A DNA stretch of 64,000 nucleotides from an uncultured Bacilli bacterium (GTDB taxonomy: Bacteria; Bacillota_I; Bacilli_A; RF39; UBA660): the NCBI GenBank assembly GCA_947631205.1, contig CANRKL010000001.1, positions 4,802 through 68,801 of the forward strand. The letters are read 5' to 3'. Numbering within the stretch: position 1 is the first letter of the stretch; each line of letters starts with the position of its first letter. Positions 1,231-58,476 of the stretch are shown here, piece after piece. Under the pieces are notes generated by a model that searched no databases, was not told where the DNA came from, and saw only the letters and a program-made list of their open reading frames with translations. A program made the translations under genes and the position numbers.

Positions 1231-1334
1231 AAAATGAATAGAAGTGTAAATTAATAAAAAAAGTTTATGCTTCTTTTCTATTTTGTGTTAAGATGTATAT
1301 AGAAAGTAGGAGATAAAAATGGATAAAAAGACAA

Positions 1335-2933
1335 TTGGGGGGGGGGTTATTAAATAAGAAAATAGTAATCATACTACTAATTCTTACAATAACCATAACA
1401 ATAGGAGGAAGTTATGCCTTTTGGCAAATAACAAAAAGTCAAACAGGAGATAATGTGATAACTTCAGGGTGTGTAGACTTAACTATAGATAATCAAACAA
1501 ATAATATACAACTTAATAATGCTTATCCCACAGAAGATAGTGAAGGACAAAATTTAGACCCATTTATATTTACAGTAACCAATCATTGTAATGTTAAAAT
1601 GGATTATGAGATAGGATTAGAAACGTTAAGTGATACAAATTTAGAAAGTAAATATGTTAAAGTATTAATAAATGAACAAGGAAAAACTGGTAGTTCTAAA
1701 TTATTAAGTACATATGAAAATGAAAGTAAAACTATAATAGATGGAGCTAAAGAAGGAAGAATACTCTTAGAAGGAAAATTAGAACCGACAACAGATAATA
1801 ATAATCCTAGTAAAAAAGATTATGAACTAAGACTATGGTTAGATTATGACGCGGATAAAGGAGCAATGAGTAAAACATTTAGAAGTAAGATAGTATTAAG
1901 TGGAGTAGAAAATACACCCAAACGTTCTGATGAAGTATGTGATACAAATCCTGATAGTGTAGATTGTAAGTTATTAAAAAATGATGATAAAAATGAAGAA
2001 GCTCAATTAGCATATGATGGAACAGAAGAAAATAATTTAAGATATATTGGAGCAACTCCAAATAATTATATTGATATTGGGGATAGGGATTTAGATGGAC
2101 AACCAATCTTATGGCGAATAATAGGAGTTATGAATAATATGACGATTGTAGGTGATGATGATAGTGAAAGTGCATGGCAAAGTTTAGTAAAAATAATCAG
2201 AGCAGATAGCATAGGGAATTGGAGTTGGGACTCATCAGCAAGTGGAGTAAACTATGGATATGGGGTAAACGAATGGAGTGAGTCTGATTTAATGACAACC
2301 TTAAACTCTGGAGCATACTGGAGCAAGACCAGTGGACAATGTTACAGTGGTTCAAATGATAGTCAGAAAGCATGCGATTTTAGTAGTATAGGACTAACTA
2401 AGGAAGTAAGAAACAAAATAGCTAAAGTAAGATGGAATACAGGAACAATGCCAGATGAATATTCAAGTAATACGAGTAAAACAACAGCAAGTTATATGTA
2501 TCAAGGAGAGAGAAGCGATAATCACAGAAAAAAATTTTGCAGTAGTGGAAGTTACTGTAATGACATAGTAGAACGAACATCAACATGGGATGGATATATA
2601 GGACTAATGTATCCATCTGACTATGGATATGCGGTCGGCGGAGAGGTACGAAATAGTTGCTTAGCAAAAACAATGTACAACTGGAATGGAAGTAGTCCAG
2701 ATTGTAAAGGAAATGATTGGTTATTACCAACGTCATCTTATGAATGGACCCTAACTCCTGACCCTGATTCGTCGTATGCTACTTATGTGTTCAATGTGTA
2801 TTCTTCTGGATACTTGAATGAAAGTAATGTTGGACCTACTTATTCCGTTCGTCCTGTCGCTTATCTAACGCCTGGTACACAGATTGTAGTCGGTGAGGGA
2901 ACAAAAGAAAATCCGCATACCTTAAAAGCGTAA
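1335..2933 (+). CDS. TasA/camelysin-like secreted protein, 532 aa, with a SipW-type signal peptide and a ~330-aa Cys-containing C-terminal domain of unknown function. Relative to the RBS-associated ATG at 1319, the reading frame is broken by a poly-G(10) tract.
   Basis: The N-terminus has an n-region, an h-region, then SYAFWQ (compare the TasA signal-peptide motif AxFxD). Next comes VITSGCVDLTID, resembling TasA ASGTLDLSA. It is a paralog of 47926-49524, 16358-16966 and 4509-5072. Confidence 0.6.
   Translation: MGGGLLNKKIVIILLILTITITIGGSYAFWQITKSQTGDNVITSGCVDLTIDNQTNNIQLNNAYPTEDSEGQNLDPFIFTVTNHCNVKMDYEIGLETLSDTNLESKYVKVLINEQGKTGSSKLLSTYENESKTIIDGAKEGRILLEGKLEPTTDNNNPSKKDYELRLWLDYDADKGAMSKTFRSKIVLSGVENTPKRSDEVCDTNPDSVDCKLLKNDDKNEEAQLAYDGTEENNLRYIGATPNNYIDIGDRDLDGQPILWRIIGVMNNMTIVGDDDSESAWQSLVKIIRADSIGNWSWDSSASGVNYGYGVNEWSESDLMTTLNSGAYWSKTSGQCYSGSNDSQKACDFSSIGLTKEVRNKIAKVRWNTGTMPDEYSSNTSKTTASYMYQGERSDNHRKKFCSSGSYCNDIVERTSTWDGYIGLMYPSDYGYAVGGEVRNSCLAKTMYNWNGSSPDCKGNDWLLPTSSYEWTLTPDPDSSYATYVFNVYSSGYLNESNVGPTYSVRPVAYLTPGTQIVVGEGTKENPHTLKA
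1337..1346 (+). repeat. Homopolymeric G(10) tract lying between the RBS-ATG (1319) and the long tasA-like ORF.
   Basis: Counted directly as 10 consecutive G. The ATG at 1319 has an AGGAG RBS 6 nt upstream but, with 10 G, reaches a stop after 12 codons. With 9 or 12 G it reads in frame through the 532-aa ORF. Confidence 0.9.
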
Positions 2934-3078: not shown

Positions 3079-4446
3079 ATGAATATTAAAATGGAAGAAA
3101 TAGTAAATTATTGTAAACAATATGGTTTTATATTTCAAGGAAGTGAAATATATGGTGGACTTTCTAATACATGGGATTATGGACCTTTAGGAAAAGAATT
3201 AAAAGAAAATATTAGAAAATCTTGGTGGAAAAAATTTATTCAAGAAAATCCTTATAATTATGGACTAGACTCAGCTATTCTTATGAATCCAGAAGTTTGG
3301 GTTGCCTCTGGTCATGTTTCAAGTTTTGCTGACCCATTAATAGATTGTAAAAAATGTAAAAGTCGTCATCGAGCTGATAAATTAATTGAAGATAGCATGG
3401 GTATTTCTGCAGATGGGTGGACTAATGAAGAAATAGAAAACTATATTAATGAAAACCAAATTAAATGTCCTATATGTGGTTCAACATCTTTTACAGGAAT
3501 AAGACAATTTAACTTATTATTTGAAACCCATCAAGGTGTTACAGAAGATACAAAAAGCAAAGTTTATTTAAGAGGTGAGACGGCCCAAGGAATATTTGTT
3601 AATTTTTTAAATGTTCAAAGAAGTATGCGTGCTAAAGTTCCTTTTGGAATTGGCCAAACAGGAAAAAGTTTTCGAAATGAAATAACTCCAGGTAATTTTA
3701 TTTTTAGAACAAGAGAATTTGAACAAATGGAATTAGAGTTTTTTTGTAAGCCTAATACTGATTTAGAATGGTTTGGTTATTGGAAAAGTTTTTGCCTTAA
3801 CTTTTTAAAAGATTTAGGAATTAATAAAGATAATTTACGTTTTAGAGACCATCAAAAAGAAGAATTAGCCTTTTATAGTAAAGCTACAACTGATATTGAA
3901 TATTTATATCCAATTGGTTGGGGAGAATTGTGGGGAATAGCTGATAGAACTGACTATGATTTATCTGTTCATGAAAAACATTCTAAACAAGAATTAAAAT
4001 ATTTAGACCCTGAGACTAATGAAAGATATATTCCTTATGTTATTGAGCCTTCTGTAGGATTAGACCGTCTTTTATTATGTGTTTTATGTGACGCCTATAA
4101 AAAAGAAAATATTAACTCGGAAGAAAGATTAGTATTAAAAATTCATCCAGCCCTAGCGCCTTATAAAGTTACAATACTACCATTAGTAAAGAAAATTCAT
4201 AGTAAAAAAGCTAAAGAAATATATGGTGATTTATCTAAATATTTTATGTGTAGTTATGATGAAGCAGGAAGTATTGGTAAAAGATATCGTCGAAGTGATG
4301 CAATTGGAACTCCTTTTGCTATTACAATCGATGATGATACCCTAAATAACAAAACAGTAACAATTAGGTATCGTGATTCCATGGAGCAACAAACAATAGA
4401 TTTAAAAGACTTAAAAGATTTTATTGTCAATAAAACAACATTTTAA
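3079..4446 (+). CDS. glyQS: Glycyl-tRNA synthetase, alpha2 (GlyQS) type.
   Basis: It contains the class II aaRS motifs and the sequence [18 protein letters not shown] typical of dimeric GlyRS. An AGGAAGGA RBS sits 8 nt upstream. Confidence 0.9.
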
Positions 4447-4508
4447 ATTTAAGAGATTGAAATAAGTTAAATAATTTGTTAAAATGGTTATAGAATAGAG
4501 GAATGAAT

Positions 4509-5072
4509 ATGGATAAAAAAATTTTTTGGTCAGTTATTGTTGTAACTGTTAGTGCTTTAGTTATATTACTTTCTTTAACTTATAATACCACTTTTTCTTA
4601 TTTTACAACTACCATTGATACTTCTGGTTATAGTGGTGCTGGTAATGGTAAGACTGGACTTACAGCTGGTGAAATTACTGGAGATGTAGTATTAAGTGGG
4701 AGTACTGATATTTTTGGTGATAAAATATATCCAGGGACTAGCCTAAATTACACTTTTACTATATCAAATCCTAATACAATAGATGTGCCAGTAAATCTAT
4801 ATTGGACTAATGTTACAAATAGTTTTATTAATAAAAATGATTTACAAATAACTTTAAAAGATAGCCATCAAAAAGAAATTATTACAGCAGCGAATAACAA
4901 AACGTTTCCTAAAAGCAATAATGAGGACTTAGTTACGAATTTAGTAGTTCCTAAAGGTGGTTCAACGACATATACATTAACAATAAATTACATAAATACT
5001 AACCAAAATCAATTTGGTGATATGGGTAAAGCATTTAAAGGAACGATAAATATTAAGAGTTATGAAGAATAA
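4509..5072 (+). CDS. Short TasA/camelysin-like secreted protein with a SipW-cognate-type signal peptide.
   Basis: The signal peptide is followed by FSYFTTT (compare TasA A-F-x-D). The segment GDKIYPGTSLNYTFTISNPN resembles TasA PGDKLTKDFQFENNG. Start chosen at the second ATG (4509; the track ORF starts at 4503), which is 7 nt from a GAGG RBS. Confidence 0.6.
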   Translation: MDKKIFWSVIVVTVSALVILLSLTYNTTFSYFTTTIDTSGYSGAGNGKTGLTAGEITGDVVLSGSTDIFGDKIYPGTSLNYTFTISNPNTIDVPVNLYWTNVTNSFINKNDLQITLKDSHQKEIITAANNKTFPKSNNEDLVTNLVVPKGGSTTYTLTINYINTNQNQFGDMGKAFKGTINIKSYEE

Positions 5073-5095
5073 AAGAAAGGTTGATTGGTGATTAG

Positions 5096-6259
5096 ATGTT
5101 AAGCTTAAGTATAGGGAAATGTACCTACGATATAACTGTACCAGTAGATAATTATCCTGTTGAAAACTCCAAAATGGTTTTAAAAGAAAAATTTGAAAGT
5201 AGTGGAGGGGCAGCTTGTAATGTTTCTGTTTTAATGGGAAGATGGAATAATGAAGCATATTATATGGGAGCTATTGGTTATGATGATTATGGTTCTAGCG
5301 TTAAAAAAGAGTTAGAAGGCTTAAAAATTAATACTAATTTCATGGAAACAAACTATGAAAAAAAGACCGCAATTCGTTATATAATTGTTAATAAAGCTAA
5401 CACATCAAGAACAATAATGATGATAGAACCTGAAGTTTTTCATTTAAAAAAAGTTGATACAGATATTAATCCAGATATAATTTATAGTGATGGTTATGAG
5501 TATTCTGCTTCTATCGCCGCTTTTCAAAAATATTCTAATGCTGTTACCGTACTTGGAGCAAGCTTAGATAGTGGTTGTGACGCCAAAGAAGTATTAGCGC
5601 TAGCTAAATATGCTAAATATGTCGTTTTCTCCCTTGATTTTGCGGAAGCCCTAACAAGATTAAAAGCAGATTTTAATAATCCTCAAACTTTATTAAATAT
5701 ATATAAAGAAATAAAAGATAAATATTCTGACCAAACTATTGTCGTTACATTAAAAAATATGGGCGCAATGTATGAAGTTAATAATGAAGTTAAAGTTATG
5801 CCAACTATCTCCGTTACTGAAATAGATAGAACAGGGGCTGGAGATATATTTGATGGAGCATTTACTTATGCTTTAGGAAAAGGGTATGATATTGAAAAAT
5901 CAATTAGAATTGCTAATATATCTGCTGGATTATCTACTACAAAATATGGTTCAAAAGATTCAATTCCATTATTATCTGATGTTATAAGCTACTATGAAGA
6001 TAAGTTTGGACCAATAGAAACAACTGAAGCTCCTAATCAAAATGTTCCAAATAATCAAGCCCAACCAGTAGCAAATAATAATCCTAATGTTGTAAATAAT
6101 GTAAATAATGCTGTAAATCAAAATGTTAATCCAGGAGTTGTACCCAATAATCAAGTCCCACCAATGCCAAATAATCCTTTAAATAATCAAGTACCTCCTG
6201 TAACTAATCAGATAAATCAACCTAATCAAGTAAATCCTCCAAGTAATCCTCAAGTATGA
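5096..6259 (+). CDS. PfkB-family carbohydrate/nucleoside kinase with a ~90-aa N/Q/P-rich low-complexity C-terminal tail.
   Basis: It has the GAGDIFDGAF...ANISAGLSTTKYG pattern (PfkB anion hole and DTxGAGD-like motif). The tail consists of PNNQ/VNN repeats. Confidence 0.8.
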   Translation: MLSLSIGKCTYDITVPVDNYPVENSKMVLKEKFESSGGAACNVSVLMGRWNNEAYYMGAIGYDDYGSSVKKELEGLKINTNFMETNYEKKTAIRYIIVNKANTSRTIMMIEPEVFHLKKVDTDINPDIIYSDGYEYSASIAAFQKYSNAVTVLGASLDSGCDAKEVLALAKYAKYVVFSLDFAEALTRLKADFNNPQTLLNIYKEIKDKYSDQTIVVTLKNMGAMYEVNNEVKVMPTISVTEIDRTGAGDIFDGAFTYALGKGYDIEKSIRIANISAGLSTTKYGSKDSIPLLSDVISYYEDKFGPIETTEAPNQNVPNNQAQPVANNNPNVVNNVNNAVNQNVNPGVVPNNQVPPMPNNPLNNQVPPVTNQINQPNQVNPPSNPQV

Positions 6260-6510
6260 TAGTATATAATTTTTATCCTAAATTAGATTTACATGGAGAA
6301 TATACAACTACAGCTTATACGGTAATTCATGAGTTTATCAAAGATAATATCAAATTAAAAAATGAGTTTATAGTGTTAATTCATGGAAAAGGAACTGGTA
6401 AATTAAAAAAAGAAGTTCATTATATTTTAGACCATGAAAAAAAAGTCCTATCTTATCAATTAGACCCATATAATCTAGGACAAACTATCGTACATTTAAA
6501 AATTAATTAA
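6256..6510 (+). CDS. Smr-domain protein (small MutS-related).
   Basis: The spacing LDLHG...IHGKGTGKLK matches the Smr signature. It is translationally coupled to the upstream kinase. Confidence 0.65.
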   Translation: MIVYNFYPKLDLHGEYTTTAYTVIHEFIKDNIKLKNEFIVLIHGKGTGKLKKEVHYILDHEKKVLSYQLDPYNLGQTIVHLKIN

Positions 6511-7471: not shown

Positions 7472-7547
7472 GTCTCCTTAGCTCAGTTGGTAGAGCAACT
7501 GACTCTTAATCAGTGGGTCTGGGGTTCGAGCCCCCAAGGGGACACCA
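7472..7547 (+). tRNA. tRNA-Lys (anticodon CTT).
   Basis: A 76-nt cloverleaf was folded by hand. It has a 7-bp acceptor stem, a GCTC/GAGC D-stem, an ACTGA/TCAGT anticodon stem with loop CTCTTAA, a GGTTCGAGCCCC T-arm, and an encoded CCA. Confidence 0.85.
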
Positions 7548-11479: not shown

Positions 11480-12520
11480 ATGAGTACAGAAGATTTTGAT
11501 TATGAATTGCCTGAAAAATTAATTGCCCAAACACCATTAAAAAATCGTAGTTCATCAAAATTACTAGTGTTAGATAAAGACACTGGTGAAATTAATCATG
11601 AACAATTTAGTGATATTACTAAATATTTACATAGTGGTGATGTTTTAGTTTTAAATAATACTAAAGTTATTCCAGCTAGAATAATTGGGGAAAAAGAAGA
11701 TACAAAAGCTGTCATTGAATTATTATTACTAAAAGATTTAGGAGATGATACTTGGGAATGTTTATCAAGGCCTTTTAAAAGATTACATATTGGCACCAAA
11801 ATTTTATTTAAACATAACCTAGCGGCGACTGTCATTCAAAAAAAAGAAGAAGGAATTGTTTTAGTTAAACTAGAATACAATGGAATATTAATGGAAATAT
11901 TAGATAAATTAGGAGAAATGCCTCTTCCCCCATATATTCATGAAAAATTAGAAGATAAAAATCGTTATCAAACAGTTTATGCTAAGTATTTTGGAAGTGC
12001 CGCAGCTCCCACAGCGGGACTTCACTTTACAAATGAATTACTAGAAAAAATCAAAAATATGAATGTTACTATTCTTTATGTAACATTACACGTTGGACTT
12101 GGAACATTTAGACCTGTTACAGTAAGTGATGTTACAAAACATAATATGCACAGTGAATATTATGAAATAAATGCCCAAACGGCTGATTTACTAAATAAAG
12201 CTAAAGAAGAAAATAGAAGAATAATTGCCGTAGGAACAACATCTACTAGAACCCTAGAAGCTAATATAAGTAAATATCATACTTTTAAAGAAGCTAAAGA
12301 AACAACTAATATTTTTATCTATCCAGGATATAAATTTAAAGCTATAGATTGTTTAATTACTAATTTTCATTTACCAAAAAGTACTTTAATAATGCTTGTA
12401 AGTGCTCTAGCTGGTAAAGATAATATAATGCGTTCATATAAAGAAGCAATTAAAAATAATTATCGTTTTTTCTCATTTGGCGATGCTATGTTTATTAAAA
12501 GTGAAAGGAATGTTAAATAA
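11480..12520 (+). CDS. queA: S-adenosylmethionine:tRNA ribosyltransferase-isomerase QueA.
   Basis: The N-terminal [15 protein letters not shown] matches QueA, and it sits in the ruvAB-queA synteny. Confidence 0.9.
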
Positions 12521-13488
12521 TGTTAATAAAAGAATTTAAAAGAGAATTAGACAAATACAATAAAAAAGAAATTATTGAAATAGCTTCTTTCTTATATAAA
12601 AAAATTCCTAAGAAACTTAAAGAAGAAAGTGAAATAGATAATTATATAATTGATATTAATAATAAAAATGTTAAAAGTAGTGAAGAAGAACTAACAATGG
12701 AAGATTTACAAAAAAAATTAGATTACTTTTTAGAGTGTGTTGATAATGGTTATTATGCTTCTCCTAACCGAATTATTCCCAAAAGTGCCCGAAGCAAATG
12801 GAGGTTTCAAGTTAAAAAATATTATAAAATGCTAAATAAATATCCTATAGATTCTTCTGATGGACTAATAGCAACTTATTATTTAATTCAATTGTTTAAA
12901 AAATTAAGTATTGGAACAGGAAGGTTACTTTTTTCTTCACGGAATACTTTTGGGGCTGTCGGAGTAAATCAAACATTATTTTATGAAAATATAGTTAAAC
13001 GCATTTTATACCAAGTTAAAAATGAAAATAATATTAAAAAATGTATAAGTTTACTATATGTTCCAAGGGACATTGATGAATTTGAAAGTTTCATGTATGA
13101 TGTTTTAATATCATCATTAAATACTAACGAAGAAAGACAAATAGCTATTAAATTATTAAGTGAAAATGTAGATTTAAATACTAATAAAATGGTTAAAGTT
13201 AAAACATATCAAGATGAATATAATTTAAAAACACAAATAAATAGCGATACTTATGGAATAGTTTCTCTATATTTTGATATGGGAAAAATAGAAGAAGGAT
13301 TAAAATATTATCATAAACATAGTATAGAAAATAATGAAGAAGAAAAAGAATACATTATTTTGGAAATATTAGAGATAAGAGAAGAGTATGAATGGTGGAT
13401 AAAAGAATATGATTCTCATAAAATTGTTTATCGAAAGTCCTTAAAAGAAAATTATATAAAATTTAAAAAATTGTTAGAAAATGAATAA
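12520..13488 (+). CDS. Hypothetical protein, start-stop coupled to queA.
   Basis: The ORF is 322 aa and no motif was recognised. Its ATG overlaps the queA stop (ATAATG). Confidence 0.5.
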   Translation: MLIKEFKRELDKYNKKEIIEIASFLYKKIPKKLKEESEIDNYIIDINNKNVKSSEEELTMEDLQKKLDYFLECVDNGYYASPNRIIPKSARSKWRFQVKKYYKMLNKYPIDSSDGLIATYYLIQLFKKLSIGTGRLLFSSRNTFGAVGVNQTLFYENIVKRILYQVKNENNIKKCISLLYVPRDIDEFESFMYDVLISSLNTNEERQIAIKLLSENVDLNTNKMVKVKTYQDEYNLKTQINSDTYGIVSLYFDMGKIEEGLKYYHKHSIENNEEEKEYIILEILEIREEYEWWIKEYDSHKIVYRKSLKENYIKFKKLLENE

Positions 13489-13547
13489 TTTTAGTTTATC
13501 TTTTTAGATAAGATATGTTACAATGTAAAGCAGAAAGTAGAGTATAT

Positions 13548-14417
13548 ATGGAAAATAAAGAATGTCTAAAATTGTTAATCCAAAAATATCCTAATTTGAG
13601 TGCTTTAAAAGTTAGCAATCATTTTTTGACATGGCAAGATAAAACAGTAAACTTAGAAATGATTAATGTATATTCCTTTTTAAAAGCTAATAAAAATTTA
13701 GTTTCTAATTTAAGTAAAATAACTAGTGAAGACTTTATAAATATATTAAATATTCATCATAAATCTCTTGAACTTCAAAATGACTTAAGTCAAATTAAAC
13801 TTTTTGAAAATAATTTTTTAATTAAAAATATTCGTCTAATATCTCGCTTTGCCGAAGATGGATTATTAAAAAATTATATCTATATAATAGATGTTGAAGA
13901 TAAATCATATATTATTTTAAATAATTCTACGGTTGATATAAATAAAATATATGATTATTTAGCTAAGAAAAATTTTGGCAATGTATTAATTAATAACTTG
14001 ATTAAGGAAATTAATAATGAAGAAGACTTAAAAAAATCCTTATCTATAGATAAATATTTTGCCATGCTTAAAAGTGATAATCTAACTGTAGAAGAGTTAA
14101 ATAAAATGCAAGAATTAGAAAGTTTATTAAAAGATATGTATTATTACCAAGATTGCCTGCTTTCAAGTAACTATCAATTAGTCGAGTATTATTTTAATAC
14201 ATTAGACCAAATAAATAAAGAGTATTATAAGACTGATAATGAAATAAATGCCTTAAATAGAGTGTATAATAATTTATCAAGATTAAAACTAGAAAGACCA
14301 TTAGAACTAACTAGAAAAAAATCTCAAAACAGCGGTTTTTTAAATATTGTATTACTCATATTATTAGTTATAATTTTAACAATTAGTTTATGTTGTTGGT
14401 TATGGAGGAGCAAATGA
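13548..14417 (+). CDS. Hypothetical tail-anchored membrane protein.
   Basis: There is a C-terminal hydrophobic helix (LLILLVIILTISLCCWLW). The start was set at the second ATG because TGTTACAAT at 13516-13524 looks like an extended -10 that overlaps the first ATG. Confidence 0.45.
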   Translation: MENKECLKLLIQKYPNLSALKVSNHFLTWQDKTVNLEMINVYSFLKANKNLVSNLSKITSEDFINILNIHHKSLELQNDLSQIKLFENNFLIKNIRLISRFAEDGLLKNYIYIIDVEDKSYIILNNSTVDINKIYDYLAKKNFGNVLINNLIKEINNEEDLKKSLSIDKYFAMLKSDNLTVEELNKMQELESLLKDMYYYQDCLLSSNYQLVEYYFNTLDQINKEYYKTDNEINALNRVYNNLSRLKLERPLELTRKKSQNSGFLNIVLLILLVIILTISLCCWLWRSK

Positions 14418-15421
14418 AAAAAGTTTTAATTATAATTATTTGTTTATGTTGTCTAACAGCTTGTAAGAAAAATGAAGAAGTAAAAAATGAAATTACAGAA
14501 AATAATTCATCATATACTTTAGAATTACAAGGATTAGATAAAATTGAACTTGCCTATGGTGAAAAATATGAAGAACCAGGATTTATTGCCAAAGATAGTG
14601 ATGGTAATGATATAACTGACCAAGTTATTGTAAATAGTGATATTAAAAAAACACCAGGCGAATATAAAGTAACATATCAAATTACAGATACCGATATTAC
14701 TAAAACCAGAATTGTTACTGTAAATCCCGTAGAAGTAAGCGAAAATGCCACATATATTCCTGTCTTAATGTACCACTACTTTTATGATGATGAAAATGGT
14801 GAGGTTGCAAGTGATGCCAATCATCTAGCTAAGAGTGATTTTATTGCTCAATTAGAATATCTTAAAGAAAATAATTATTACTATCCAACAATGCAAGAAT
14901 TAAAAGATTATCTTGATGGTAAAATAATGTTGCCTAAAAAAAGTATTATTTTAACAATGGATGATGGCAATGAAAGTAATTACCGAATTGCCTATCCTTT
15001 AGCGCTTAAATATGAAATACCAATAGTTTGGTTTGTTGTAACTAGTTGGACAGACCCTAATTTACCATACCAACAAGAAATAATTAATTCTGGATATGTA
15101 ACTATGGAAAGTCACACGCATGATATGCACAAATCCGGTTGTAGTGGAATGGGGCATGGAGGATATTTTCAATGCGTTGATGATGAAACTGGCCTAAAAG
15201 ACCTTCAAACTTCTAAAGAAATGCTTAAAACAGCTATTAGTTTAGCTTATCCTTTTGGCGATTACAATGACCACACCAAAGACTTATTAAAAAAAGCTGG
15301 ATATTCACTAGCTTTCACAACAGAATGGGGAGTAGTAAAAAGAGGAATGGACCCATATCAATTACCACGAATAAGAATCAGTGCTGGCTCCTCACTACAA
15401 ACATTTATTGATTCTATTTAA
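14414..15421 (+). CDS. Polysaccharide deacetylase (NodB-homology, CE4) lipoprotein.
   Basis: The lipobox LTAC follows a signal peptide. The TMDDG motif and the His-containing NodB motifs are present. Confidence 0.75.
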   Translation: MKKVLIIIICLCCLTACKKNEEVKNEITENNSSYTLELQGLDKIELAYGEKYEEPGFIAKDSDGNDITDQVIVNSDIKKTPGEYKVTYQITDTDITKTRIVTVNPVEVSENATYIPVLMYHYFYDDENGEVASDANHLAKSDFIAQLEYLKENNYYYPTMQELKDYLDGKIMLPKKSIILTMDDGNESNYRIAYPLALKYEIPIVWFVVTSWTDPNLPYQQEIINSGYVTMESHTHDMHKSGCSGMGHGGYFQCVDDETGLKDLQTSKEMLKTAISLAYPFGDYNDHTKDLLKKAGYSLAFTTEWGVVKRGMDPYQLPRIRISAGSSLQTFIDSI

Positions 15422-15494
15422 AATACAAATTCCGACATATTATGTATATTTTTCCAAAAATTCTCCAAACTATTACTGGAAAGGAGAATTTTTT

Positions 15495-16226
15495 ATGTTA
15501 AAAAACTTAAAAATGACTATGTTAGTTATGCTAGTCTTATCAATATTTACTATTTTTAATGTTAATGCTGAATCAAAAACAGTTACCAGTGAAACTGAAT
15601 TAAAAGAAGCATTACAAAATGAAAGTATTGATGAAATTATTTTAGGAAATGACATTGAAACTACTTCTAAAATCAATGTTTTGCGTCCCGTAACTATTGA
15701 TGGAAAAAATCATACAATAAAATACGTTGGAACTTTTAAAGGTGGTAAAGATAACACAGTTTGGGATGGTATTTATGTAATCCAAGTTTATAAAACCACT
15801 GCGACAATCAAAGATATTAAACTAACTGGTGGTAATGCTGCTTTATTAATTAATGGTTCTAATGTCCGCTTAGAGGGAACTATTGATGTTTCTGGAAATG
15901 GTTTTGGTGGAATTGAACTTGGTCGTGGTAGTGGAGTAGAAACAGTACCAGAAGTTGAAATGAATGATGATACAAATTTAGTAAATGATACTGAAACCGC
16001 TTCTAAACCATCACTTTGGGTACCAAGTGACACTGAAGAAGCTATAGTAGAATACAATGGAGTAGAACATAAATTTGAAGCTGGTGAAGAATTTTCTTTA
16101 ACTGTTTTAGAAAATATATTAGACCCAGTAAATCCTGCAACTAGTGATTCTATTACAATAAGTATTATTCTATCATTAATTAGTTTGATGACTATTATCT
16201 ATGGCTATCAAAAAATTCATAATTAG
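15495..16226 (+). CDS. Secreted right-handed beta-helix-like surface protein with a C-terminal membrane anchor.
   Basis: It has a signal peptide. The segment ELKEALQN..IILGNDI..VTIDGKNHTI is typical of pectate-lyase-fold adhesins. The C-terminal TM is ISIILSLISLMTIIYG. The AAGGAG RBS is 8 nt from the ATG at 15495. Confidence 0.5.
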   Translation: MLKNLKMTMLVMLVLSIFTIFNVNAESKTVTSETELKEALQNESIDEIILGNDIETTSKINVLRPVTIDGKNHTIKYVGTFKGGKDNTVWDGIYVIQVYKTTATIKDIKLTGGNAALLINGSNVRLEGTIDVSGNGFGGIELGRGSGVETVPEVEMNDDTNLVNDTETASKPSLWVPSDTEEAIVEYNGVEHKFEAGEEFSLTVLENILDPVNPATSDSITISIILSLISLMTIIYGYQKIHN

Positions 16227-16357: not shown

Positions 16358-16966
16358 ATGGAAAAAGAAAATAAATCAAATGAAAGTATTAAAAATGTAA
16401 CCATAGGAATAATTGGAGTCATTGCTTTAGTAATAACAACTGTAGGTATTACTTATGCAGTATGGACATCTAATGCCTCTCAAGTAACTCAAAATGCTAT
16501 TACTGTTGGTTGTGTTAATGTAACCTTAGCTGATGAAAGTGATGACATAACAATTAGTGAAGCTTATCCTATTAGTGATGGACAAGGAAAACAGCTTAAG
16601 CCTTACAAATTTACTGTAAAAAATAATTGTAAGTTTAGTGCAACTTATAAAGTAACCTTAGAAAAGTTAAGTGGTTCAAATTTAGACCCAAAATATGTAA
16701 AAGTCTTATTAAGTAATCAAGGGGAAGCAACAACTAATTTAGAAGCCAAAGCATTAATAACTTCGAATTATCCATCATCAGAGCCATATGTTACCGCTGG
16801 AGCCACAGCTGGTTTTCAGTTATTAACAAATCAAACATTAGAAGCAAGTGCTACCAAAGCTTATGATTTACGTTTATGGCTTGATACTTCTGCTCCATCA
16901 TCAATTGGTAATCAAGTATTTAATTCTAAAATTGTTGTTAAAGCTGTCCCAACTAATCAAAAATAA
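16358..16966 (+). CDS. Short TasA/camelysin-like secreted protein with a SipW-cognate-type signal peptide.
   Basis: The TM is followed by TYAVWTSNAS, then ITVGCVNVTL, AYPISDGQGKQLKP and YDLRLWLD. These motifs are shared with the other three paralogs. Confidence 0.6.
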   Translation: MEKENKSNESIKNVTIGIIGVIALVITTVGITYAVWTSNASQVTQNAITVGCVNVTLADESDDITISEAYPISDGQGKQLKPYKFTVKNNCKFSATYKVTLEKLSGSNLDPKYVKVLLSNQGEATTNLEAKALITSNYPSSEPYVTAGATAGFQLLTNQTLEASATKAYDLRLWLDTSAPSSIGNQVFNSKIVVKAVPTNQK

Positions 16967-17072: not shown

Positions 17073-17606
17073 ATGGAAGAAACATATGGATTAGTTATTA
17101 AAAGAAAAAAAGAGGAAATATATGGTTTTCCAATGCCTTTAAAAGAAATAGACAAACTAACTACTACTTATTCGGAAAATGAATTATTAAAACAAATTGA
17201 AGAAGCTAATATTATACCTAATTTAAAAGAAAGTAATCCAGAATTTGCTATTGCAATTAAAAAAAATAATAAATGGTTAGTTGTTAAAAAAACACCAATT
17301 ATTACTGATTCATTTATAATTAACTATAATCCTCTTGATGTAATAAAAACAAATCCTCTATATTATATGAGTTTTTTATATAGCTCACTAAATTACTATT
17401 TGCAAAAAGATTATCCCAAAGAAACATTTAAAAAAGCAATAAACTCCTTAAAAAGTACTTTCCAAGATTTTAGTAATAACTATCAAAATCTAAGCTATGA
17501 AGAAAAAAGAATTATCAAGTGTGAATTAGCAAATAAATTTGATATTAAACAAATCCTTATAAATAATGAGACATTAAAACTTACTAAAGAAGAAGAACTA
17601 AAATAA
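17073..17606 (+). CDS. Hypothetical protein.
   Basis: The ORF is 177 aa and no motif was recognised. Confidence 0.45.
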   Translation: MEETYGLVIKRKKEEIYGFPMPLKEIDKLTTTYSENELLKQIEEANIIPNLKESNPEFAIAIKKNNKWLVVKKTPIITDSFIINYNPLDVIKTNPLYYMSFLYSSLNYYLQKDYPKETFKKAINSLKSTFQDFSNNYQNLSYEEKRIIKCELANKFDIKQILINNETLKLTKEEELK

Positions 17607-21970: not shown

Positions 21971-22957
21971 ATGATTAATGAAAATGAAAAAAATGAATAT
22001 TTGTTAAATGATAAAGTAGTAAAAAAATTATTTACAAGTAGTAAAGTTGGAAATGAACTAATGCTTACGATAACAAGTTTGATAACAGGAATATCCCTAG
22101 AAAATTTAAAAAGAGACTTTGAACTCATTCACCCAGATATTGGCGTAAATAAAAATATTATAAATAGTGAAGCAGATGTAGCTTTTGAAAACCAAGAAGG
22201 AATATTTTCTTTTGAGTTTAATTATACTCCTTATAGAGGACTAACTGAGAAAAGCATGAGTTATGTATGCCAGTTTTATCTAAGACAAATAAATCATAAA
22301 GAAGATTATAAAAAACTAAAGAAAGTATACTCTATTAATGTCAATAATTTTGATTATTTTAAATTAAATAGATTTGTATATATAAGTGAAATGAGGGAAA
22401 GAAAAAGTGGATTATCAAGAAATGTTGGAATATATTATATAGATATAAATCTGGACTATTTAAGAAAAATAGGTTATGATAAAGATAACAAAAGTTGTTT
22501 AGAGAAAATATTATACATGTTTGTGTGTAATGACCTAGATGAGTTAAAAGAAATATATAAGGGTGATGAGCTAATGAGTAAAGTAATCAAAGAAGCAGAA
22601 TTAATAGTTAAAGATTTAGATTTATTAATGTATTATGATAAGAAAAAATTAGATGAAGAATGTTCTTATTATAATGGACAAGTTGATGGTTTTAATTCTG
22701 GAGTTGAAAAGGGAATTGACATTGGAATACAGCAACTAGCCAAAAAAATGTTAGATAAAAAAATTGATATAGAAACTATTCAAGAAGTCACAGGTTTAAG
22801 TGAAAAAGAAATAAAAGAGTTAGATAAAAATGATATAACTACATTTGTAGAAGAAAGAAAAAAAGAATTAAAAAAACAAATAGGAGAAGAAATAACTAAA
22901 TCTACTACCTTATCTGAAGAAGAAAAAGATTGGTTAAAAGAAAAACATGATTTATAA
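21971..22957 (+). CDS. Rpn/YhgA-like PD-(D/E)XK nuclease family protein (recombination-promoting nuclease / putative transposase family).
   Basis: The N-terminal PDDEXK_2-like region includes ..DVAFENQEGIFSFEF. A characteristic C-terminal helix motif reads KGIDIGIQQLAKKMLDKKIDIETIQEVTGLSEKEIKEL. Confidence 0.6.
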   Translation: MINENEKNEYLLNDKVVKKLFTSSKVGNELMLTITSLITGISLENLKRDFELIHPDIGVNKNIINSEADVAFENQEGIFSFEFNYTPYRGLTEKSMSYVCQFYLRQINHKEDYKKLKKVYSINVNNFDYFKLNRFVYISEMRERKSGLSRNVGIYYIDINLDYLRKIGYDKDNKSCLEKILYMFVCNDLDELKEIYKGDELMSKVIKEAELIVKDLDLLMYYDKKKLDEECSYYNGQVDGFNSGVEKGIDIGIQQLAKKMLDKKIDIETIQEVTGLSEKEIKELDKNDITTFVEERKKELKKQIGEEITKSTTLSEEEKDWLKEKHDL

Positions 22958-23072: not shown

Positions 23073-23834
23073 ATGAAAAAGAGTATTGCAATATTTTCAA
23101 CTAAAGGTGGAGTAGGGAAAACAGTTTTCACTCTTAATCTAGCAGGAATATATGAAACTTTAGGTAAAAAAGTATTAATTATTGATTATGATTTAACTAA
23201 TGGTGGAATTGCTTTATCCCTTAATAAAGAATTTAATAAAACAATCCATGATTATGCTTATGACATTTTTGCTAATCAAAAAAAGAGTTTAAAAGAATAC
23301 ACAACTAAATATGATGAATATATTGATTTTATAGCTAGCCCTAAAGACCCTAGATTAGTAAGTCAAATAGATAACTATGCAATTATTTCATTAATAAATG
23401 AAGCTAGTCACAATTATGATGTTATACTAATTGATACAAATCATGTTTTAACCGCGTCCAATTTAGTTTTACTTGATGGAGTAGATGAGATTTTGTTTTT
23501 AGCAACCAATGACCCAATTGATTTAAAAAATCTTAAAAATCTTTTAGTTATTTTCAAAAATAATCAAAAAACAAACTATAAAATTTTACTAAACGATTCT
23601 TATAATCCTTATAAAAATTATTTTTCATTATATGATATTAAAAATATTATTAAAGCTAATATCGATTATACTTTAACTAACAACTTTTTTGTTAAAAATA
23701 TTGACCAATACATTATGAATGGAGAAATCTTAACTTTACAAAAAGATGCTCCTAAAGTATTTGACAAAGATTATGCTAATCTCCTTAAATTAGCGGTTGA
23801 TTATATGGAAAAGGATGATAATAATGGCAAATAA
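23073..23834 (+). CDS. ParA/MinD-superfamily ATPase, CpaE/TadZ-like.
   Basis: It carries the deviant Walker A STKGGVGKT. It lies immediately upstream of, and overlaps, a CpaF-like gene. Confidence 0.65.
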   Translation: MKKSIAIFSTKGGVGKTVFTLNLAGIYETLGKKVLIIDYDLTNGGIALSLNKEFNKTIHDYAYDIFANQKKSLKEYTTKYDEYIDFIASPKDPRLVSQIDNYAIISLINEASHNYDVILIDTNHVLTASNLVLLDGVDEILFLATNDPIDLKNLKNLLVIFKNNQKTNYKILLNDSYNPYKNYFSLYDIKNIIKANIDYTLTNNFFVKNIDQYIMNGEILTLQKDAPKVFDKDYANLLKLAVDYMEKDDNNGK

Positions 23835-25107
23835 AAAATTAATAGAAATATTTGGAATGGATAAAGAAAAGAATAGCAATAAAACTAGTTATACTTTCCC
23901 CAAAGAAGAACTCCTAGAAGAATTACGAAAAAAAATAATTAATATCCTTTTAAGTGATAGTAGTAAAAAAATAGATGAAGGAATTAAAGAAGCTACTGAA
24001 GGATTAGAACTAACCAACATGGAATTAAACTACTTATCTAATTTAATCGAAAATGAATTACTTGGACAAGGCCCATTATTTTCTGTCCTAAAAGATGAAC
24101 TAGTTAAAACTATTATGATAAATGGTAAAGATGAAGTCTATATTGAAACTAATAATCAAATTATTAAAGATGATTCAATTAAGTTTATTGATGAATCTCA
24201 TATTATTAGAACAATTACTAATCTTTTAAAAGAAAGTAACCAAAATCTTAATTTAGATGAAAAAATAATCGATACCAGACTAGATGATGGGACAAGAATT
24301 AATGGAATTTTGCCACCCCTAGCTAAAAAAGGCCCAGTCTTTACTATTCATAAGTTTCAAAAAAATATCAATACGATGGAAGATTATGTTAGACTTGGTT
24401 CCCTAACAACAGATATGGCTAACTTTTTAGAAGCTACCCTTAAAGCTAAAGCTAACATTTTAATAACGGGACTTACTGGTTCTGGTGCAACATCTATACT
24501 AAGAACCTTAGGAAATTCCTTAGATGATGATAAAAGAATAATTACTTTAGAAGAAATTAGTGAATTAAATTTAATTAAGCCTAACTTAGTATCTTTAGAA
24601 TTACATAACAATCATATCCCCATAAAAGAAATCTTAAAAAAAGTTATCCGAATGAATCCCAATTATCTTTTAGTTAATGATTTATTTGCAAGTGACTTCC
24701 TGAGTTTTTTAGAAATAATGAATTTAGGAGTCGATGGTATAGTTGCAACCATGCACGCTAGAGATATCAAAGATGCTTTAAAAAGAATAGAATTAGAGCC
24801 ATCAATTAAAGGCTTAAATATTCCCCTTAATATTATGCGAGAAAATATTGTCAATGCCCTTAATATTATCATTAATGTTGAAAAAATGAACGACAATAAA
24901 CAAAAAATTACCTCTATTAGTGAATTAAAATATCTAAATGGAGAAATTAAAATTGAAGAAATATTTTCTTTTCAAAAAAAATCAATTAATCAAAATGAAG
25001 AAGTGATAGGAGAATATACTTTTTATCCTAAAAACTGTCAAATTGTCAATATATTTAGAAAAAAAGGTATTCATGATATAGATTATCTATTTAATAATAA
25101 AAAATAA
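23797..25107 (+). CDS. CpaF/TadA-family secretion ATPase homolog with degenerate catalytic motifs; predicted pseudo-ATPase.
   Basis: The CpaF-diagnostic segments IMINGKDEVYIE and DTRLDDGTRINGILPPLAKKGPVFTIHKF are present. However, the Walker A is GLTGSGATS (the lysine is replaced by Ala). The GEVRG catalytic Glu segment is replaced by NDLFA. The His-box TGH is replaced by LGV. Confidence 0.7.
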   Translation: MIIWKRMIIMANKKLIEIFGMDKEKNSNKTSYTFPKEELLEELRKKIINILLSDSSKKIDEGIKEATEGLELTNMELNYLSNLIENELLGQGPLFSVLKDELVKTIMINGKDEVYIETNNQIIKDDSIKFIDESHIIRTITNLLKESNQNLNLDEKIIDTRLDDGTRINGILPPLAKKGPVFTIHKFQKNINTMEDYVRLGSLTTDMANFLEATLKAKANILITGLTGSGATSILRTLGNSLDDDKRIITLEEISELNLIKPNLVSLELHNNHIPIKEILKKVIRMNPNYLLVNDLFASDFLSFLEIMNLGVDGIVATMHARDIKDALKRIELEPSIKGLNIPLNIMRENIVNALNIIINVEKMNDNKQKITSISELKYLNGEIKIEEIFSFQKKSINQNEEVIGEYTFYPKNCQIVNIFRKKGIHDIDYLFNNKK

Positions 25108-25121
25108 AAGGAAGTGATATT

Positions 25122-25814
25122 GTGCAAACAATTATTATAACTCAAATAATATCTAGTTTTGTTTTAGTTATTTTATTTGTTATTTTAATTAAACAAAAAA
25201 GAATTAAAAGTTTTGATGAAAGATTTGCAAATTTTACACTTAAAGAAAATCCTTTAATAAATCCTAAAAGTGATGCTTTAATAACTATTAAAGAAGAAGA
25301 TTTACACTCTTTTCTAACCGTACTATATAATCATTTAAATAATGGCTTATCAGTTACCTCATCCCTTAAAAAAATGCAAAATGATAATCTTAGTTTTATT
25401 GCCGATATTTTATTAGAAAAATTAAATGAAGGCTTAAATATTTCCATGGCTTTTACTTATTTAGCTAAAAAAACAAATTTATCACTTTTATCCGACATCA
25501 GTCATTTTTTAACAGTTACAGAAAAAATTAATGGTAAAGAAGAACTAGCTTTAATGACCATTATTCAAAATATTAAAGATAAAATCTATCAAAACAAAGA
25601 AAAAGACATTTTAAGAAGCATTATTAAATTTGTTTCCTATATAATTTTATTTATACCTATTTTAACACTAGGAATTATTATTCTAATTAATAATACTTTC
25701 TTTTTTCAAATTTTAACTACTTTAAAAGGAATAATTTACTTTATTTTAATAATCTTAATTTATCTTATTTATTTATTAATAGTAAAATTTATATTGGGAG
25801 TGAGTAAGTTATGA
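25122..25814 (+). CDS. TadB/GspF-like inner-membrane platform protein (tentative).
   Basis: It has an N-terminal TM, a cytoplasmic helical domain, then two or three TM helices. Its position after a CpaF-like gene also fits. Confidence 0.4.
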   Translation: MQTIIITQIISSFVLVILFVILIKQKRIKSFDERFANFTLKENPLINPKSDALITIKEEDLHSFLTVLYNHLNNGLSVTSSLKKMQNDNLSFIADILLEKLNEGLNISMAFTYLAKKTNLSLLSDISHFLTVTEKINGKEELALMTIIQNIKDKIYQNKEKDILRSIIKFVSYIILFIPILTLGIIILINNTFFFQILTTLKGIIYFILIILIYLIYLLIVKFILGVSKL

Positions 25815-26437
25815 AGAAAGCCAAAGAAAGATTAAATGCCAAGCAAAATCTTATCCATTTAAAAATTAAAGTAAATACATTTATTTATCTTCGTTTAATG
25901 ATTATTTTAGTCTTGCTAATTTTTTGTGCATCTCTAAAAAAACCTGGAATTTTTATTTTTATTATATTAGGTTCAATTATTTATTTTGGAAGTGAAGCTA
26001 TATTCTATGATTATCCTCTTTTTACTAAAAGAAAAAAAGAGTATGATGAGTTTATAGAGTTTCTTTCCTTCTTAAAACTAGAGCCAAATTTAAAAGAAAA
26101 TGTAATAGACAGTATTATAAATGTCTTAAATGAAGTAAATTATTCTTTCAGCGATACTTTACGGAGTATTGCCCAAAAAAGAAAATATGGCGAAAAAGAA
26201 AAAATAGATAATTTTTTTATTAATCAAGATATTAAAAATGGATTAGAACTTATTTTAAGTAATGATTTTCTAAAAAATCCTTATCTTATTGATGAAGTAA
26301 GTAATAAAATAAGCCAAAATGAGCTATTAAGAACTAAAAAACAAATGGCTTCTATTCCCATCATTCTATTTATTGTCTCCTTAATATTTACTTTAACTAT
26401 TAGTTACTTATTTTACTATATTAGTACTATTTTATAA
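25811..26437 (+). CDS. TadC-like membrane protein (tentative).
   Basis: Its topology is similar to the preceding gene, to which it is translationally coupled. Confidence 0.35.
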   Translation: MKKAKERLNAKQNLIHLKIKVNTFIYLRLMIILVLLIFCASLKKPGIFIFIILGSIIYFGSEAIFYDYPLFTKRKKEYDEFIEFLSFLKLEPNLKENVIDSIINVLNEVNYSFSDTLRSIAQKRKYGEKEKIDNFFINQDIKNGLELILSNDFLKNPYLIDEVSNKISQNELLRTKKQMASIPIILFIVSLIFTLTISYLFYYISTIL

Positions 26438-39199: not shown

Positions 39200-40312
39200 A
39201 TGGCTAAAAAAGTAATTGTAGGGATGAGTGGGGGAGTAGATTCAGCAGTAAGTGCTGCCATATTAAAAGAACAAGGATACATTGTTGAAGGACTTTTCAT
39301 GCGCAACTGGGATGCACTTCTAAATAATGATACCCTAGGTAATCCCACTTTAAATAATGATATATGTCCTCAAGAACAAGATTATAATGACGCTTTAAAG
39401 ACTTGTGAAATATTAGGTATTCCCTTACACCGTGTTTTATTTATTAAAGAATATTGGGATAATGTTTTTACTTATTTTTTAAAAGAATTAGAGAAGGGTA
39501 GAACCCCTAATCCAGATGTTTTATGTAATAAATATATAAAATTTGATGTTTTTAAAAAAGAAGCAATTAAATTAGGAGCTGACTATATTGCAACAGGACA
39601 TTATGCCCGAATAGAAGGTTCAAAACTATTAAGAGGAGTAGATTTAAATAAAGACCAAACTTATTTTCTAGCTCAAGTCACTCCCAATCAACTATCTAAT
39701 GTGTTATTTCCAGTCGGTAATATGACTAAAGAAGAAGTTCGCAAAAAAGCTCAAGAATTAGGCTTAAATGTTGCGAATAAAAAAGATTCTACAGGTATAT
39801 GTTTTATTGGTGAGAGAAACTATCAAAAATTTATTAAAAACTATCTTAAACCAAATCCTGGAGATATCATAGATGTTAAAACTAAAAAAGTAATTGGTAA
39901 GCATACTGGCCTTATGAATTACACCATTGGCCAAAGAAGAAACGTTGGCATTTCTGGTTATGAAGAACGTCATTATGTATGTGGTAAAGATGTTAAAAAT
40001 AATATATTATATGTTTCTTTTGATGAAAATAATGAATATTTAATGAGCAATTCTTGTTTAATAGAAGATGTCAATTTTATTAGTAGTACTAAACCAACTT
40101 TTTGCACCGCTAAGTTTCGTTATCGTAGTGAAGATGTCCCTGTTGAATTAAACTACTTAGAAAATAATGAAATATTAGTTAAATATCCGGGAGGATTTAA
40201 AGCAGTTACCCCTGGACAATTTTGTGTCCTTTATTTAGGAGAAGAATGCCTTGGCAGTGGCGTAATAAAAAAAGTATACAAAGATAATAAAGAATTGTGG
40301 TATTTAAAATGA
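39200..40312 (+). CDS. mnmA: tRNA-specific 2-thiouridylase MnmA.
   Basis: The PP-loop SGGVDS and the catalytic cysteines are present in the MnmA family arrangement. Confidence 0.92.
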   Translation: MAKKVIVGMSGGVDSAVSAAILKEQGYIVEGLFMRNWDALLNNDTLGNPTLNNDICPQEQDYNDALKTCEILGIPLHRVLFIKEYWDNVFTYFLKELEKGRTPNPDVLCNKYIKFDVFKKEAIKLGADYIATGHYARIEGSKLLRGVDLNKDQTYFLAQVTPNQLSNVLFPVGNMTKEEVRKKAQELGLNVANKKDSTGICFIGERNYQKFIKNYLKPNPGDIIDVKTKKVIGKHTGLMNYTIGQRRNVGISGYEERHYVCGKDVKNNILYVSFDENNEYLMSNSCLIEDVNFISSTKPTFCTAKFRYRSEDVPVELNYLENNEILVKYPGGFKAVTPGQFCVLYLGEECLGSGVIKKVYKDNKELWYLK

Positions 40313-41133: not shown

Positions 41134-41154
41134 TTATAAAATAAATAAAATCTT

Positions 41155-41183
41155 ATACTTGACAGTAAAGTGTTAAGTGACTT
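41155..41183 (+). promoter_or_regulatory. Sigma-A-type promoter.
   Basis: TTGACA, an approximately 18-bp spacer, then TATAAT, upstream of the gene at 41222. Confidence 0.45.
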
Positions 41184-41221
41184 ATAATTATAATGTAAAT
41201 TAAAGGAGAGTAGGGTTCTTT

Positions 41222-57383: not shown

Positions 57384-57493
57384 TTCTTACCTCCTTTATT
57401 ATTTTAAGACGCGCCTAAAAGGTAACTTCTAAAAGTATTTAATAACCTTGTTCGAGCGGTTTTATAAAAGCTAAATATTTATAAAACATTTAA

Positions 57494-58395: not shown

Positions 58396-58476
58396 TCCCC
58401 TTTCATGTGTTTTCTACTTTAACAAATTTATTATAAAAAATCAATAAAATAGTATAAATGTTCTATATATTTACGC

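Follow-up and report, generated by a model that had tools for sequence, protein, structure and literature searches.

In a 64,000-nucleotide (nt) stretch of DNA from an uncultured Bacilli bacterium (RF39, UBA660; assembly GCA_947631205.1, contig CANRKL010000001.1, positions 4,802-68,801, forward strand; this whole analysed stretch is called the window below), we found that the open reading frame (ORF) at 1335-2933, gene A, and its paralogue at 47926-49524, gene B, encode predicted surface proteins built from two modules. The first is a signal peptide followed by a beta-sandwich of the TasA superfamily, and the second is an enlarged C-type-lectin-like head. Gene A also carries a poly-G tract at its start that is a candidate on/off switch. 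We are highly confident in the identities of the two domains. For the composite, in which a TasA-like polymerising or docking module is joined to a lectin adhesin and individual copies are switched by poly-G slippage, we lean towards acceptance; cleavage of the signal peptide, polymerisation, ligand binding and switching are the steps that we infer.

Four related ORFs in the window

An earlier note, made from the letters of this DNA, had drawn attention to four ORFs as TasA/camelysin-like secreted proteins. All four are present at the coordinates and with the translations that it gave, and we also found its N-terminal motifs (SYAFWQ, TYAVWT, FSYFTT, the V/I-T-x-G-C-V-D/N start, AYP..D..G and YxLRLWLD) and C-terminal motifs (NLRYIG..NNYIDIGDRD, TWDGYIGLMYPSDY, CKGNDWL and RP.AYL). 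The 532-residue frame of gene A (1335-2933, + strand) comprises the signal peptide, the TasA-like module, a linker and the lectin-like head, and gene B (47926-49524, +) is a full-length paralogue of 532 residues with the same two modules. ORF 16358 (16358-16966, +; 202 residues) consists of the N module only and is a candidate shaft subunit, and ORF 4509 (4509-5072, +; 187 residues) is placed in the TasA/camelysin (PF12389) family proper by the comparisons given below.

Genes A and B are 59% identical across all 532 residues, and identity between ORF 16358 and residues 1-196 of A is 37% (E = 8e-37). BLAST found no similarity between ORF 4509 and A; when a hidden Markov model (HMM) of the N-domain was run over the window ORFs, ORF 4509 ranked fourth (E = 1.4e-3), with the next match at 0.2. 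A, B and ORF 16358 are clear paralogues, and ORF 4509 is a distant one. At the DNA level, A and B are 91% identical in one block (1696-1849 against 48281-48434) and 74-78% identical elsewhere in the genes; the block, which corresponds to residues ~121-172 of the N module, could reflect gene conversion or strong constraint. The place of ORF 4509 between a class II aminoacyl-tRNA synthetase gene and pfkB-smr (window 3079-6510) is kept in another species (L091-L093; L numbers denote related loci), although the orthologue there is only 41% identical. Because the place is kept despite this divergence, ORF 4509 appears to be a stable single-copy core gene, unlike the expanding genes that carry both the N and the C module.

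A signal peptide and a TasA-like module at the N terminus

The signal peptide of gene A occupies residues 1-28 (1335-1418, +). Its N-terminal hydrophobic segment of ~16-20 residues follows a Lys-rich start, and the peptide ends in S-Y-A, after which it is probably cleaved, before F29-W30. Y27, A28 and W30 are invariant across 44 homologues. The segment aligns with the TasA signal peptide and its TWA/AFND site, and the motif [ST]-[YF]-A-x-[FWY], which lines up with TWA/AF of TasA, is invariant or near-invariant in the family; NCBIfam models, including those of the TIGR04088 type, gave no match at E ≤ 1. A similar signal-peptide motif recurs in three different types of N-terminal module.

The TasA-superfamily module itself is assigned to residues 29-192 (1419-1910, +) from an AlphaFold2 model, Foldseek, a chain of hhalign comparisons and conservation. 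In the model of protein A, for which the predicted local distance difference test (pLDDT) is 80 overall, residues 42-192 form an all-beta sandwich with a pLDDT of ~60-87. Residues 1-43 have a pLDDT below 50 in this monomer model, though residues 21-46 are conserved, and the conserved N-terminal strand (residues 29-46) is unstructured in it. When the full model was compared with the PDB by Foldseek, the top match was CanA of Pyrodictium (9hdi, probability 0.96). CanA is a donor-strand polymer of the TasA superfamily (2024 preprint).

We compared the family with TasA at the sequence level using a TasA reference that is 100% identical to PDB 8AUR over residues 28-261 and a TasA/CalY profile built from 111 PF12389-annotated proteins. 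A direct link between the N-domain and TasA, whether from a single sequence or from the family profile, was dropped, as only the signal peptide and the first strand matched. Because this direct comparison failed, the link to TasA was routed through the family of ORF 4509. A word-indexed search with ORF 4509 returned itself as the sole match; an exhaustive HMMER search returned 511 representatives at E ≤ 1e-3, which range from 172 to 1,254 residues in length and all have the domain at the N terminus. The profile of this family matches the TasA/CalY profile in hhalign with 97% probability (E = 8e-11), and with 92% (E = 8e-7) when signal peptides are removed. The match spans GTLDL and PGD..F.v.N.G and, with a relaxed alignment, also the C-terminal QN.(F/Y).G strand. 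On its other side, the ORF 4509 family profile matches the N-domain of A with 99.3% probability (E = 4e-20, 168 columns); reversed-profile controls for hhalign gave P of at least 0.08. PF12389 matches 43 of 67 stand-alone homologues of ORF 4509 at E ≤ 0.01 (best E = 4e-10), and one homologue has a precomputed M73 match.

Several results weigh against a TasA assignment of the 532-residue proteins. PF12389 gives A a score of 15.1 bits (E = 0.022), below its cut-off of 22.5, and the match is confined to residues 12-66; gene B, ORF 16358 and ORF 4509 themselves have no PF12389 match. NCBIfam is silent on the 532-residue proteins. When the N-domain profile was aligned directly to the TasA/CalY profile, hhalign covered the signal peptide and first strand only, at 24% probability, and without the signal peptides the two profiles aligned nowhere. 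The structural match to CanA is weak (E = 1.8e-3, TM-score 0.36), and TasA itself is missing from the top 50 Foldseek matches. At E < 0.1, PF12389 matches only 1 of the 44 full-length homologues.

From these comparisons we conclude, by a link that is transitive, that a TasA-superfamily module is present in all four ORFs. ORF 4509 is, from its family profile, a divergent true member of PF12389, and the type represented by A, B and ORF 16358 is a new and more distant subfamily of the TasA superfamily. The TasA/camelysin reading of the earlier note thus stood by way of the ORF 4509 family, through the PF12389 matches and hhalign, and did not stand in direct Pfam and NCBIfam searches of the 532-residue proteins. 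We considered two other identities for the N-terminal part and rejected both. A type IV pilin or prepilin was set aside because the hydrophobic core precedes the conserved motif, there is no Gly at the junction of leader and core, and there is no conserved Glu at +5. A camelysin metalloprotease was set aside because the proteins have no HExxH motif and no invariant histidine.

A C-type-lectin-like head at the C terminus

The earlier note could not place the large C-terminal module in any known family. We found that it can be placed as a divergent, enlarged C-type-lectin fold of the DUF6273 type, which spans residues 225-531 (2007-2927, +) and holds six invariant cysteines. Modelled alone with AlphaFold2, the head reaches a pLDDT of 86 and a predicted template modelling score of 0.88. 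Foldseek against the PDB gave one outstanding match, 9QA6 (E = 9e-8, probability 1.0, 331 columns), the cryo-electron microscopy structure of the Thomasclavelia ramosa immunoglobulin A (IgA) peptidase, IgAse; the next matches were weak and comprised the C-terminal domain of Legionella Lcl (DUF1566) and classical C-type lectins, at E of about 0.5-3. As the family protein has neither HExxH nor an invariant histidine, the match is therefore to the N-terminal domain of IgAse. In a published description, this domain has an irregular alpha/beta fold around a C-type-lectin-like core, is twice the usual size and is without the long loop of C-type lectins; a second paper (PMC12402451) labels it DUF6273. 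A Foldseek search of BFVD gave 19 matches at E ≤ 1e-3, and most of these were gut-phage DUF6273, receptor-binding and tail-fibre proteins, with E of ~1e-5 for the phage DUF6273 proteins.

DUF6273 has been described as a C-type-lectin-fold target of diversity-generating retroelements (DGRs), with the variable regions at the C-terminal end. In the family, the most variable segment of the head is residues 481-505 (2775-2849, +), where column entropy is 2.2-2.6 bits, compared to a domain mean of 1.4. This segment coincides with the region of weak DUF6273 matching and with the part of phage DUF6273 proteins that holds the DGR variable region. The weak matches to the DUF6273 profile (PF19789) recur, all on its C-terminal third (positions 109-172 of 172).

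Two observations speak against this placement or against its use as a guide to function. PF19789 stays below its gathering score, with 10.2 bits on A (E = 0.7) and 16.2 bits on the best relative against a cut-off of 23.5, and the N-terminal domain of IgAse is dispensable for IgA cleavage and has no assigned function. PDB sequence searches with protein A and with the family profile returned nothing relevant. On the structural models, the head is predicted to have the DUF6273/C-type-lectin-like fold. We also considered whether the heads are DGR targets and rejected this: apart from the A/B pair, the window has no long repeats, and there is no reverse-transcriptase domain in the scanned ORFs.

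A large, modular family of uncultured gut Bacilli

The family is far larger than the four members that had been noted. At E ≤ 1e-3, A matches more than 5,800 clusters (90% identity), not one of which bears a name or a Pfam domain, and the family is modular and present in multiple copies in uncultured gut Bacilli. When species-representative genomes were scanned, at least 538 loci came to light, almost all of them in metagenome-assembled genomes (MAGs) that are labelled uncultured Bacilli, Firmicutes or Tenericutes and come from rabbit, Hadza, mouse and chicken guts. The counts of architectures, poly-G tracts and peptidases given here and below for related loci cover the best 80 of these loci (1.03 Mb, ~26-30% GC), among which up to nine separate loci came from one MAG.

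In these loci, proteins with one N and one C module are the most frequent (67), followed by C-only (38) and N-only (13) proteins, by proteins with one N and two or three C modules (5) and by proteins with two C modules (2), and tandem arrays of family genes occur. C-only proteins have a different short N-terminal module with a similar signal-peptide motif. N-only proteins often bear other C-terminal parts, such as DUF285 repeats, immunoglobulin (Ig)-like repeats or other lectin-like heads. Four fusions of the TasA-like N module (L076:14233-16281, L068:17322-19166, L050:3-1832 and L011:5828-9918) illustrate the range of partners: DUF285 repeats of the Mycoplasma type (E = 3.5e-55), arrays of Ig-like repeats, a domain that terminates in GFRVV, a motif recalling FGE-sulfatase/C-lectin folds, and another kind of head, in which the motifs WRI..IN and RPVI occur. 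The C-terminal partners are varied, and the TasA-like module therefore appears to be a general N-terminal carrier for variable binding heads.

The contigs of three other assemblies of the same species (L084-L086) break off within gene A in every case, at ~1.1 kb upstream of the aminoacyl-tRNA synthetase gene. Because the repeated family appears to break short-read assemblies in this way, copy numbers in MAGs are probably underestimates.

Poly-G tracts and the start of gene A

The TTG start at 1335 overlaps a run of ten G (1337-1346, +), passed over in the earlier note, that lies between an upstream ATG and the signal peptide. This ATG (1319-1321) sits 16 bases upstream of the TTG and is preceded by a Shine-Dalgarno sequence, AGGAG (1308-1312), so that translation of gene A probably begins in truth at the element at 1308-1321 (+). 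In the assembly, this ATG opens a frame that reads MDKKTIGGGVIK*, stops at 1355-1357 and is out of frame with gene A. A tract of G9 or G12 would join the ATG to the signal peptide, giving MDKKTIGGGLLNKKIVII..., a fused reading that can also be written MDKKTIGGGLLNKK.... The assembled gene A therefore differs by a single G from a version with an ATG-initiated frame, and ATG 1319 is likely, from its sequence context, to be the real start. In the public annotation, gene A is cut to 492 residues.

The G10 tract is the sole run of G or C of at least 7 in the 64-kb window. To match tracts with genes in the related loci, we scored those lying between –260 and +150 of an ORF start and took other ORFs of 150 residues or more for comparison. 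The related loci contain 42 runs of at least eight G, all on the gene strand, and no poly-C run. A poly-G run accompanies 29 of the 101 family genes, compared to 3 of the 624 other ORFs, and these three encode related secreted proteins. Many tracts (G8-11) sit between a perfect TTGACA and a TATAAT; others follow a Shine-Dalgarno sequence and ATG, as in gene A. Gene B has no poly-G tract and has a canonical-looking promoter (TTGACA, 17 nt, TAAAAT).

We also observed a promoter cassette, CTTGACA-GTC-G(9-11)-TATCTGTTATAAT, that is conserved in L010:9784-9960, L012, L016, L018, L077, L088 and L090. The cassette is directly followed by a hairpin (CATCATAGG...CTATGGTGA) and a T-run, and ~100 nt past the hairpin there is a second TGnTATAAT box, upstream of a family gene. 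The hairpin may be a leader terminator or attenuator atop a poly-G switch.

The layout of the poly-G tracts is the anatomy of slipped-strand phase variation, and the tract of gene A is a candidate for it. Three points argue the other way. The tract lengths of 8-11 differ across paralogues and genomes, not demonstrably inside one population; the promoter spacers as assembled are 19-21 nt, with no ON state among them; and G10 in place of G9 in gene A could be an assembly miscount. An exact-pattern scan of metagenomes for gene A's tract was empty. With these points taken into account, we consider phase variation of the family genes likely.

Genomic context

The window has a GC content of ~26%, and besides the family genes it contains housekeeping and sporulation genes. 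These encode a ClpB-like protein, an aminoacyl-tRNA synthetase, RuvAB, QueA, YabP, YqfD, YbeY, Era and RecO, as well as HrcA-GrpE-DnaK-DnaJ, SpoIVB, MreC and an M50 peptidase. Genes A and B and ORFs 16358 and 4509 are scattered singly amid the housekeeping genes.

Upstream of ORF 16358, we found two genes for probable surface proteins: a polysaccharide deacetylase with a bacterial surface Ig-like domain (14390-15421) and a protein with a Pectate_lyase_5 'adhesive' domain (15381-16226). The order of the deacetylase gene, the Pectate_lyase_5 gene, ORF 16358, an unknown 177-residue ORF, yabP and yqfD is kept in three other samples (L081-L083).

A cluster at 23073-26437 resembles a Tad or type IV pilus-like secretion system. 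Its genes encode two ATPases, one ParA/CpaE-like of the AAA_31 type (23073-23834) and one T2SSE (23797-25107), together with a T2SSF membrane protein (25122-25814), and there is a second ORF of similar size (25811-26437); no link between this cluster and the TasA-like genes was found. The window also has a PD-(D/E)XK transposase-family ORF (21971-22957) and a gene for a tyrosine recombinase (44522-45430), a Phage_integrase protein with a SAM-like N-terminal domain that may be XerC/D; neither adjoins a family gene. Rfam gave just two matches at gathering score, to a tRNA gene (7472-7544, +) and to a ribosomal protein L21 leader (57397-57471, –). ORFs of 177-322 residues without a Pfam match lie within 12520-14417, 17073-17606, 40297-41998 and 57571-59118.

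Proposed mechanism and alternatives

We propose that proteins A and B would be exported by the Sec pathway as two-module surface proteins. The first module, the signal peptide and the ~165 residues after it, may polymerise or plug into a filament of the N-only paralogues (16358-16966 and 4509-5072), and residues 29-46 may act as a donor strand in a TasA-style donor-strand exchange. The second module of ~310 residues would serve as an exposed adhesin head that binds a ligand on a host or microbial surface. Slippage at poly-G tracts, in the 5' coding region or in the promoter spacer, would switch individual copies, gene A among them, and the outcome would be a variable adhesin repertoire in uncultured gut Bacilli.

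The earlier note had reported neither sipW nor tapA in the window, and this was borne out: there is no S24/S26 peptidase among the scanned ORFs and the SM.P active-site motif is absent. A search for the S26 motif near the family genes of the related loci found one LepB-like gene, in L061. There is thus no tapA-sipW-tasA-like operon in the window or in the 80 related loci. Filament formation has against it that no sipW-like or tapA-like gene lies in the window or beside the family genes in the 80 loci, and that the polymerisation reading is built on single-chain models. Filament formation falls, in our estimate, a little short of an even call.

In an alternative reading, the family members would be monomeric, secreted or wall-associated, lectin-like adhesins that are processed by signal peptidase I, with the TasA-like module as a mere stalk or spacer and no filament. 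This would fit the lack of SipW, TapA or any other assembly gene nearby and the scattering of single genes among housekeeping genes. The many unrelated C-terminal domains to which the N module is joined are what one would expect of a generic module for export or of a stalk, and S-Y-A suits an ordinary signal-peptidase-I site. In contrast, the segment after the predicted cleavage site shows strong conservation and yet has no structure in the monomer model, which suits an intermolecular strand; the N-only paralogues are separate conserved genes; and the homologous TasA, CanA and AbpX are all donor-strand polymers. We regard the monomeric alternative as unlikely, though it is the strongest of the rivals.

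If cleavage did not occur, the N-terminal hydrophobic segment would be a signal anchor and the proteins would be membrane-anchored surface lectins. The length of this segment after its Lys-rich start is compatible with an anchor, and the Pfam search shows no sortase motif or wall-binding domain that would attach the proteins otherwise. However, the invariant small-x-Ala motif stands right after the hydrophobic core and aligns to the cleaved site of TasA, and the same motif is found in three different N-terminal module types, and we therefore consider an anchor improbable.

A role as components of the spore surface or of a spore appendage also has to be weighed, since the first description of TasA was as spore coat-associated protein N and spore coat annotations are common among its homologues. 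ORF 16358 adjoins YabP, YqfD and the polysaccharide deacetylase, and SpoIVB and the M50 peptidase are encoded in the window. However, the order yqfC-yqfD-ybeY-era-recO is ordinary Firmicute synteny, A and B are not near sporulation genes, and the family genes are preceded by –35/–10 promoters of the sigma-70 type; a spore role is very improbable. To an origin as prophage-derived receptor-binding proteins or DGR targets we give almost no weight. The head does match phage DUF6273, receptor-binding and tail-fibre proteins in Foldseek, and DUF6273 is a known DGR target, but the window has no phage genes, no reverse transcriptase and no template/variable repeat pair, and the genes have Sec signal peptides and housekeeping neighbours.

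Returning to the two-module adhesin with a TasA-like carrier, a more specific version can be drawn. It would be a monoderm donor-strand fibre that needs neither SipW and TapA nor a chaperone, with a shaft of N-only proteins and plug-in subunits headed by DUF6273, leucine-rich-repeat (LRR) or Ig domains, each switched by poly-G. We hold this version to be speculative and rather unlikely. If true, the adhesin logic of FimH would have been reinvented on a TasA scaffold, and the genes would form a contingency repertoire for host glycans or immunoglobulin.

Comparison with known systems

The family shares with TasA/CalY (PF12389) a signal peptide that ends in [ST]-[YFW]-A-x-[FWY], followed by a strand that aligns to AFND...GTLDL of TasA. 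The ORF 4509 type additionally shares the PG(D/T)S..F.V.N.G and QN.(F/Y).G motifs and the beta-sandwich, and its family is detected by PF12389. In contrast to TasA/CalY, there is no adjoining sipW or tapA, and the 532-residue proteins are too divergent for the Pfam model; unlike TasA, they have a 310-residue lectin-like head, and there are many putatively phase-variable copies per genome compared to one operon. The archaeal CanA/CanX cannulae, AbpX and AbpA are comparable in that CanA is the top solved-structure match of the N module. The divergent TasA-like jelly-rolls of archaeal filaments have been described to polymerise by donor-strand complementation, some without dedicated machinery. 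However, the structural match to these filaments is weak (E = 1.8e-3) and each archaeal subunit has just one domain.

The N-terminal domain of T. ramosa IgAse (ThomasA) is the top fold match of the head, is likewise about twice the canonical size and comes from a member of the gut Bacilli. It differs in that identity is ~15% with no HMM-level match, its Zn ligands (Asp, His, Cys) have no counterpart in the family, which has the six invariant cysteines instead, and its fusion partner is an M64 peptidase in place of a TasA-like module. Gut-phage DUF6273 proteins and DGR targets (tentaclins and the targets of Faecalibacterium prophages) have the same fold and the same C-terminal variability. Unlike them, the family has no DGR and consists of cellular genes with signal peptides, and its source of diversity is paralogue expansion and putative on/off switching, not mutagenic retrohoming.

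In FimH-type pilus adhesins, a pilin-like domain that enters a donor-strand-exchange fibre is fused to a lectin domain that binds the target. They share the working logic of the two-domain design proposed here, but the family is not a member of the FimH group: the folds are unrelated, the domain order is opposite, and FimH belongs to diderm bacteria and needs a chaperone and an usher. Homopolymer contingency loci include the poly-G genes of Campylobacter, the promoter tracts of Neisseria porA and opc, and Mycoplasma vlp and vsa. The tracts of the family resemble these in being G8-11 in low-GC genomes, in lying in the 5' coding region or between –35 and –10, and in belonging to surface multigene families; they differ in lineage and protein family and are known from tract position and enrichment. 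In the literature searched, we found no description of a TasA-like carrier with lectin heads, without SipW or TapA, as a huge phase-variable gut repertoire. Each part is already known, be it the TasA superfamily, the C-type-lectin fold of DUF6273 or homopolymer contingency loci; it is their combination that we did not find there.

Significance

The poly-G tracts warn that gene callers mis-start or truncate family genes, as with the 492-residue public version of gene A, and they predict phase variation in a Gram-positive commensal lineage, a prediction that can be tested directly. The head fold is common to the N-terminal domain of an IgA protease and to gut-phage receptor-binding proteins, which points to a common class of ligand on mucosal or microbial surfaces. 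The family is among the largest unannotated protein families of a widespread, uncultured gut lineage. TasA-type fibres are known as single-domain matrix scaffolds, and a universal carrier for lectin, LRR and Ig heads would extend the TasA family to adhesin display.

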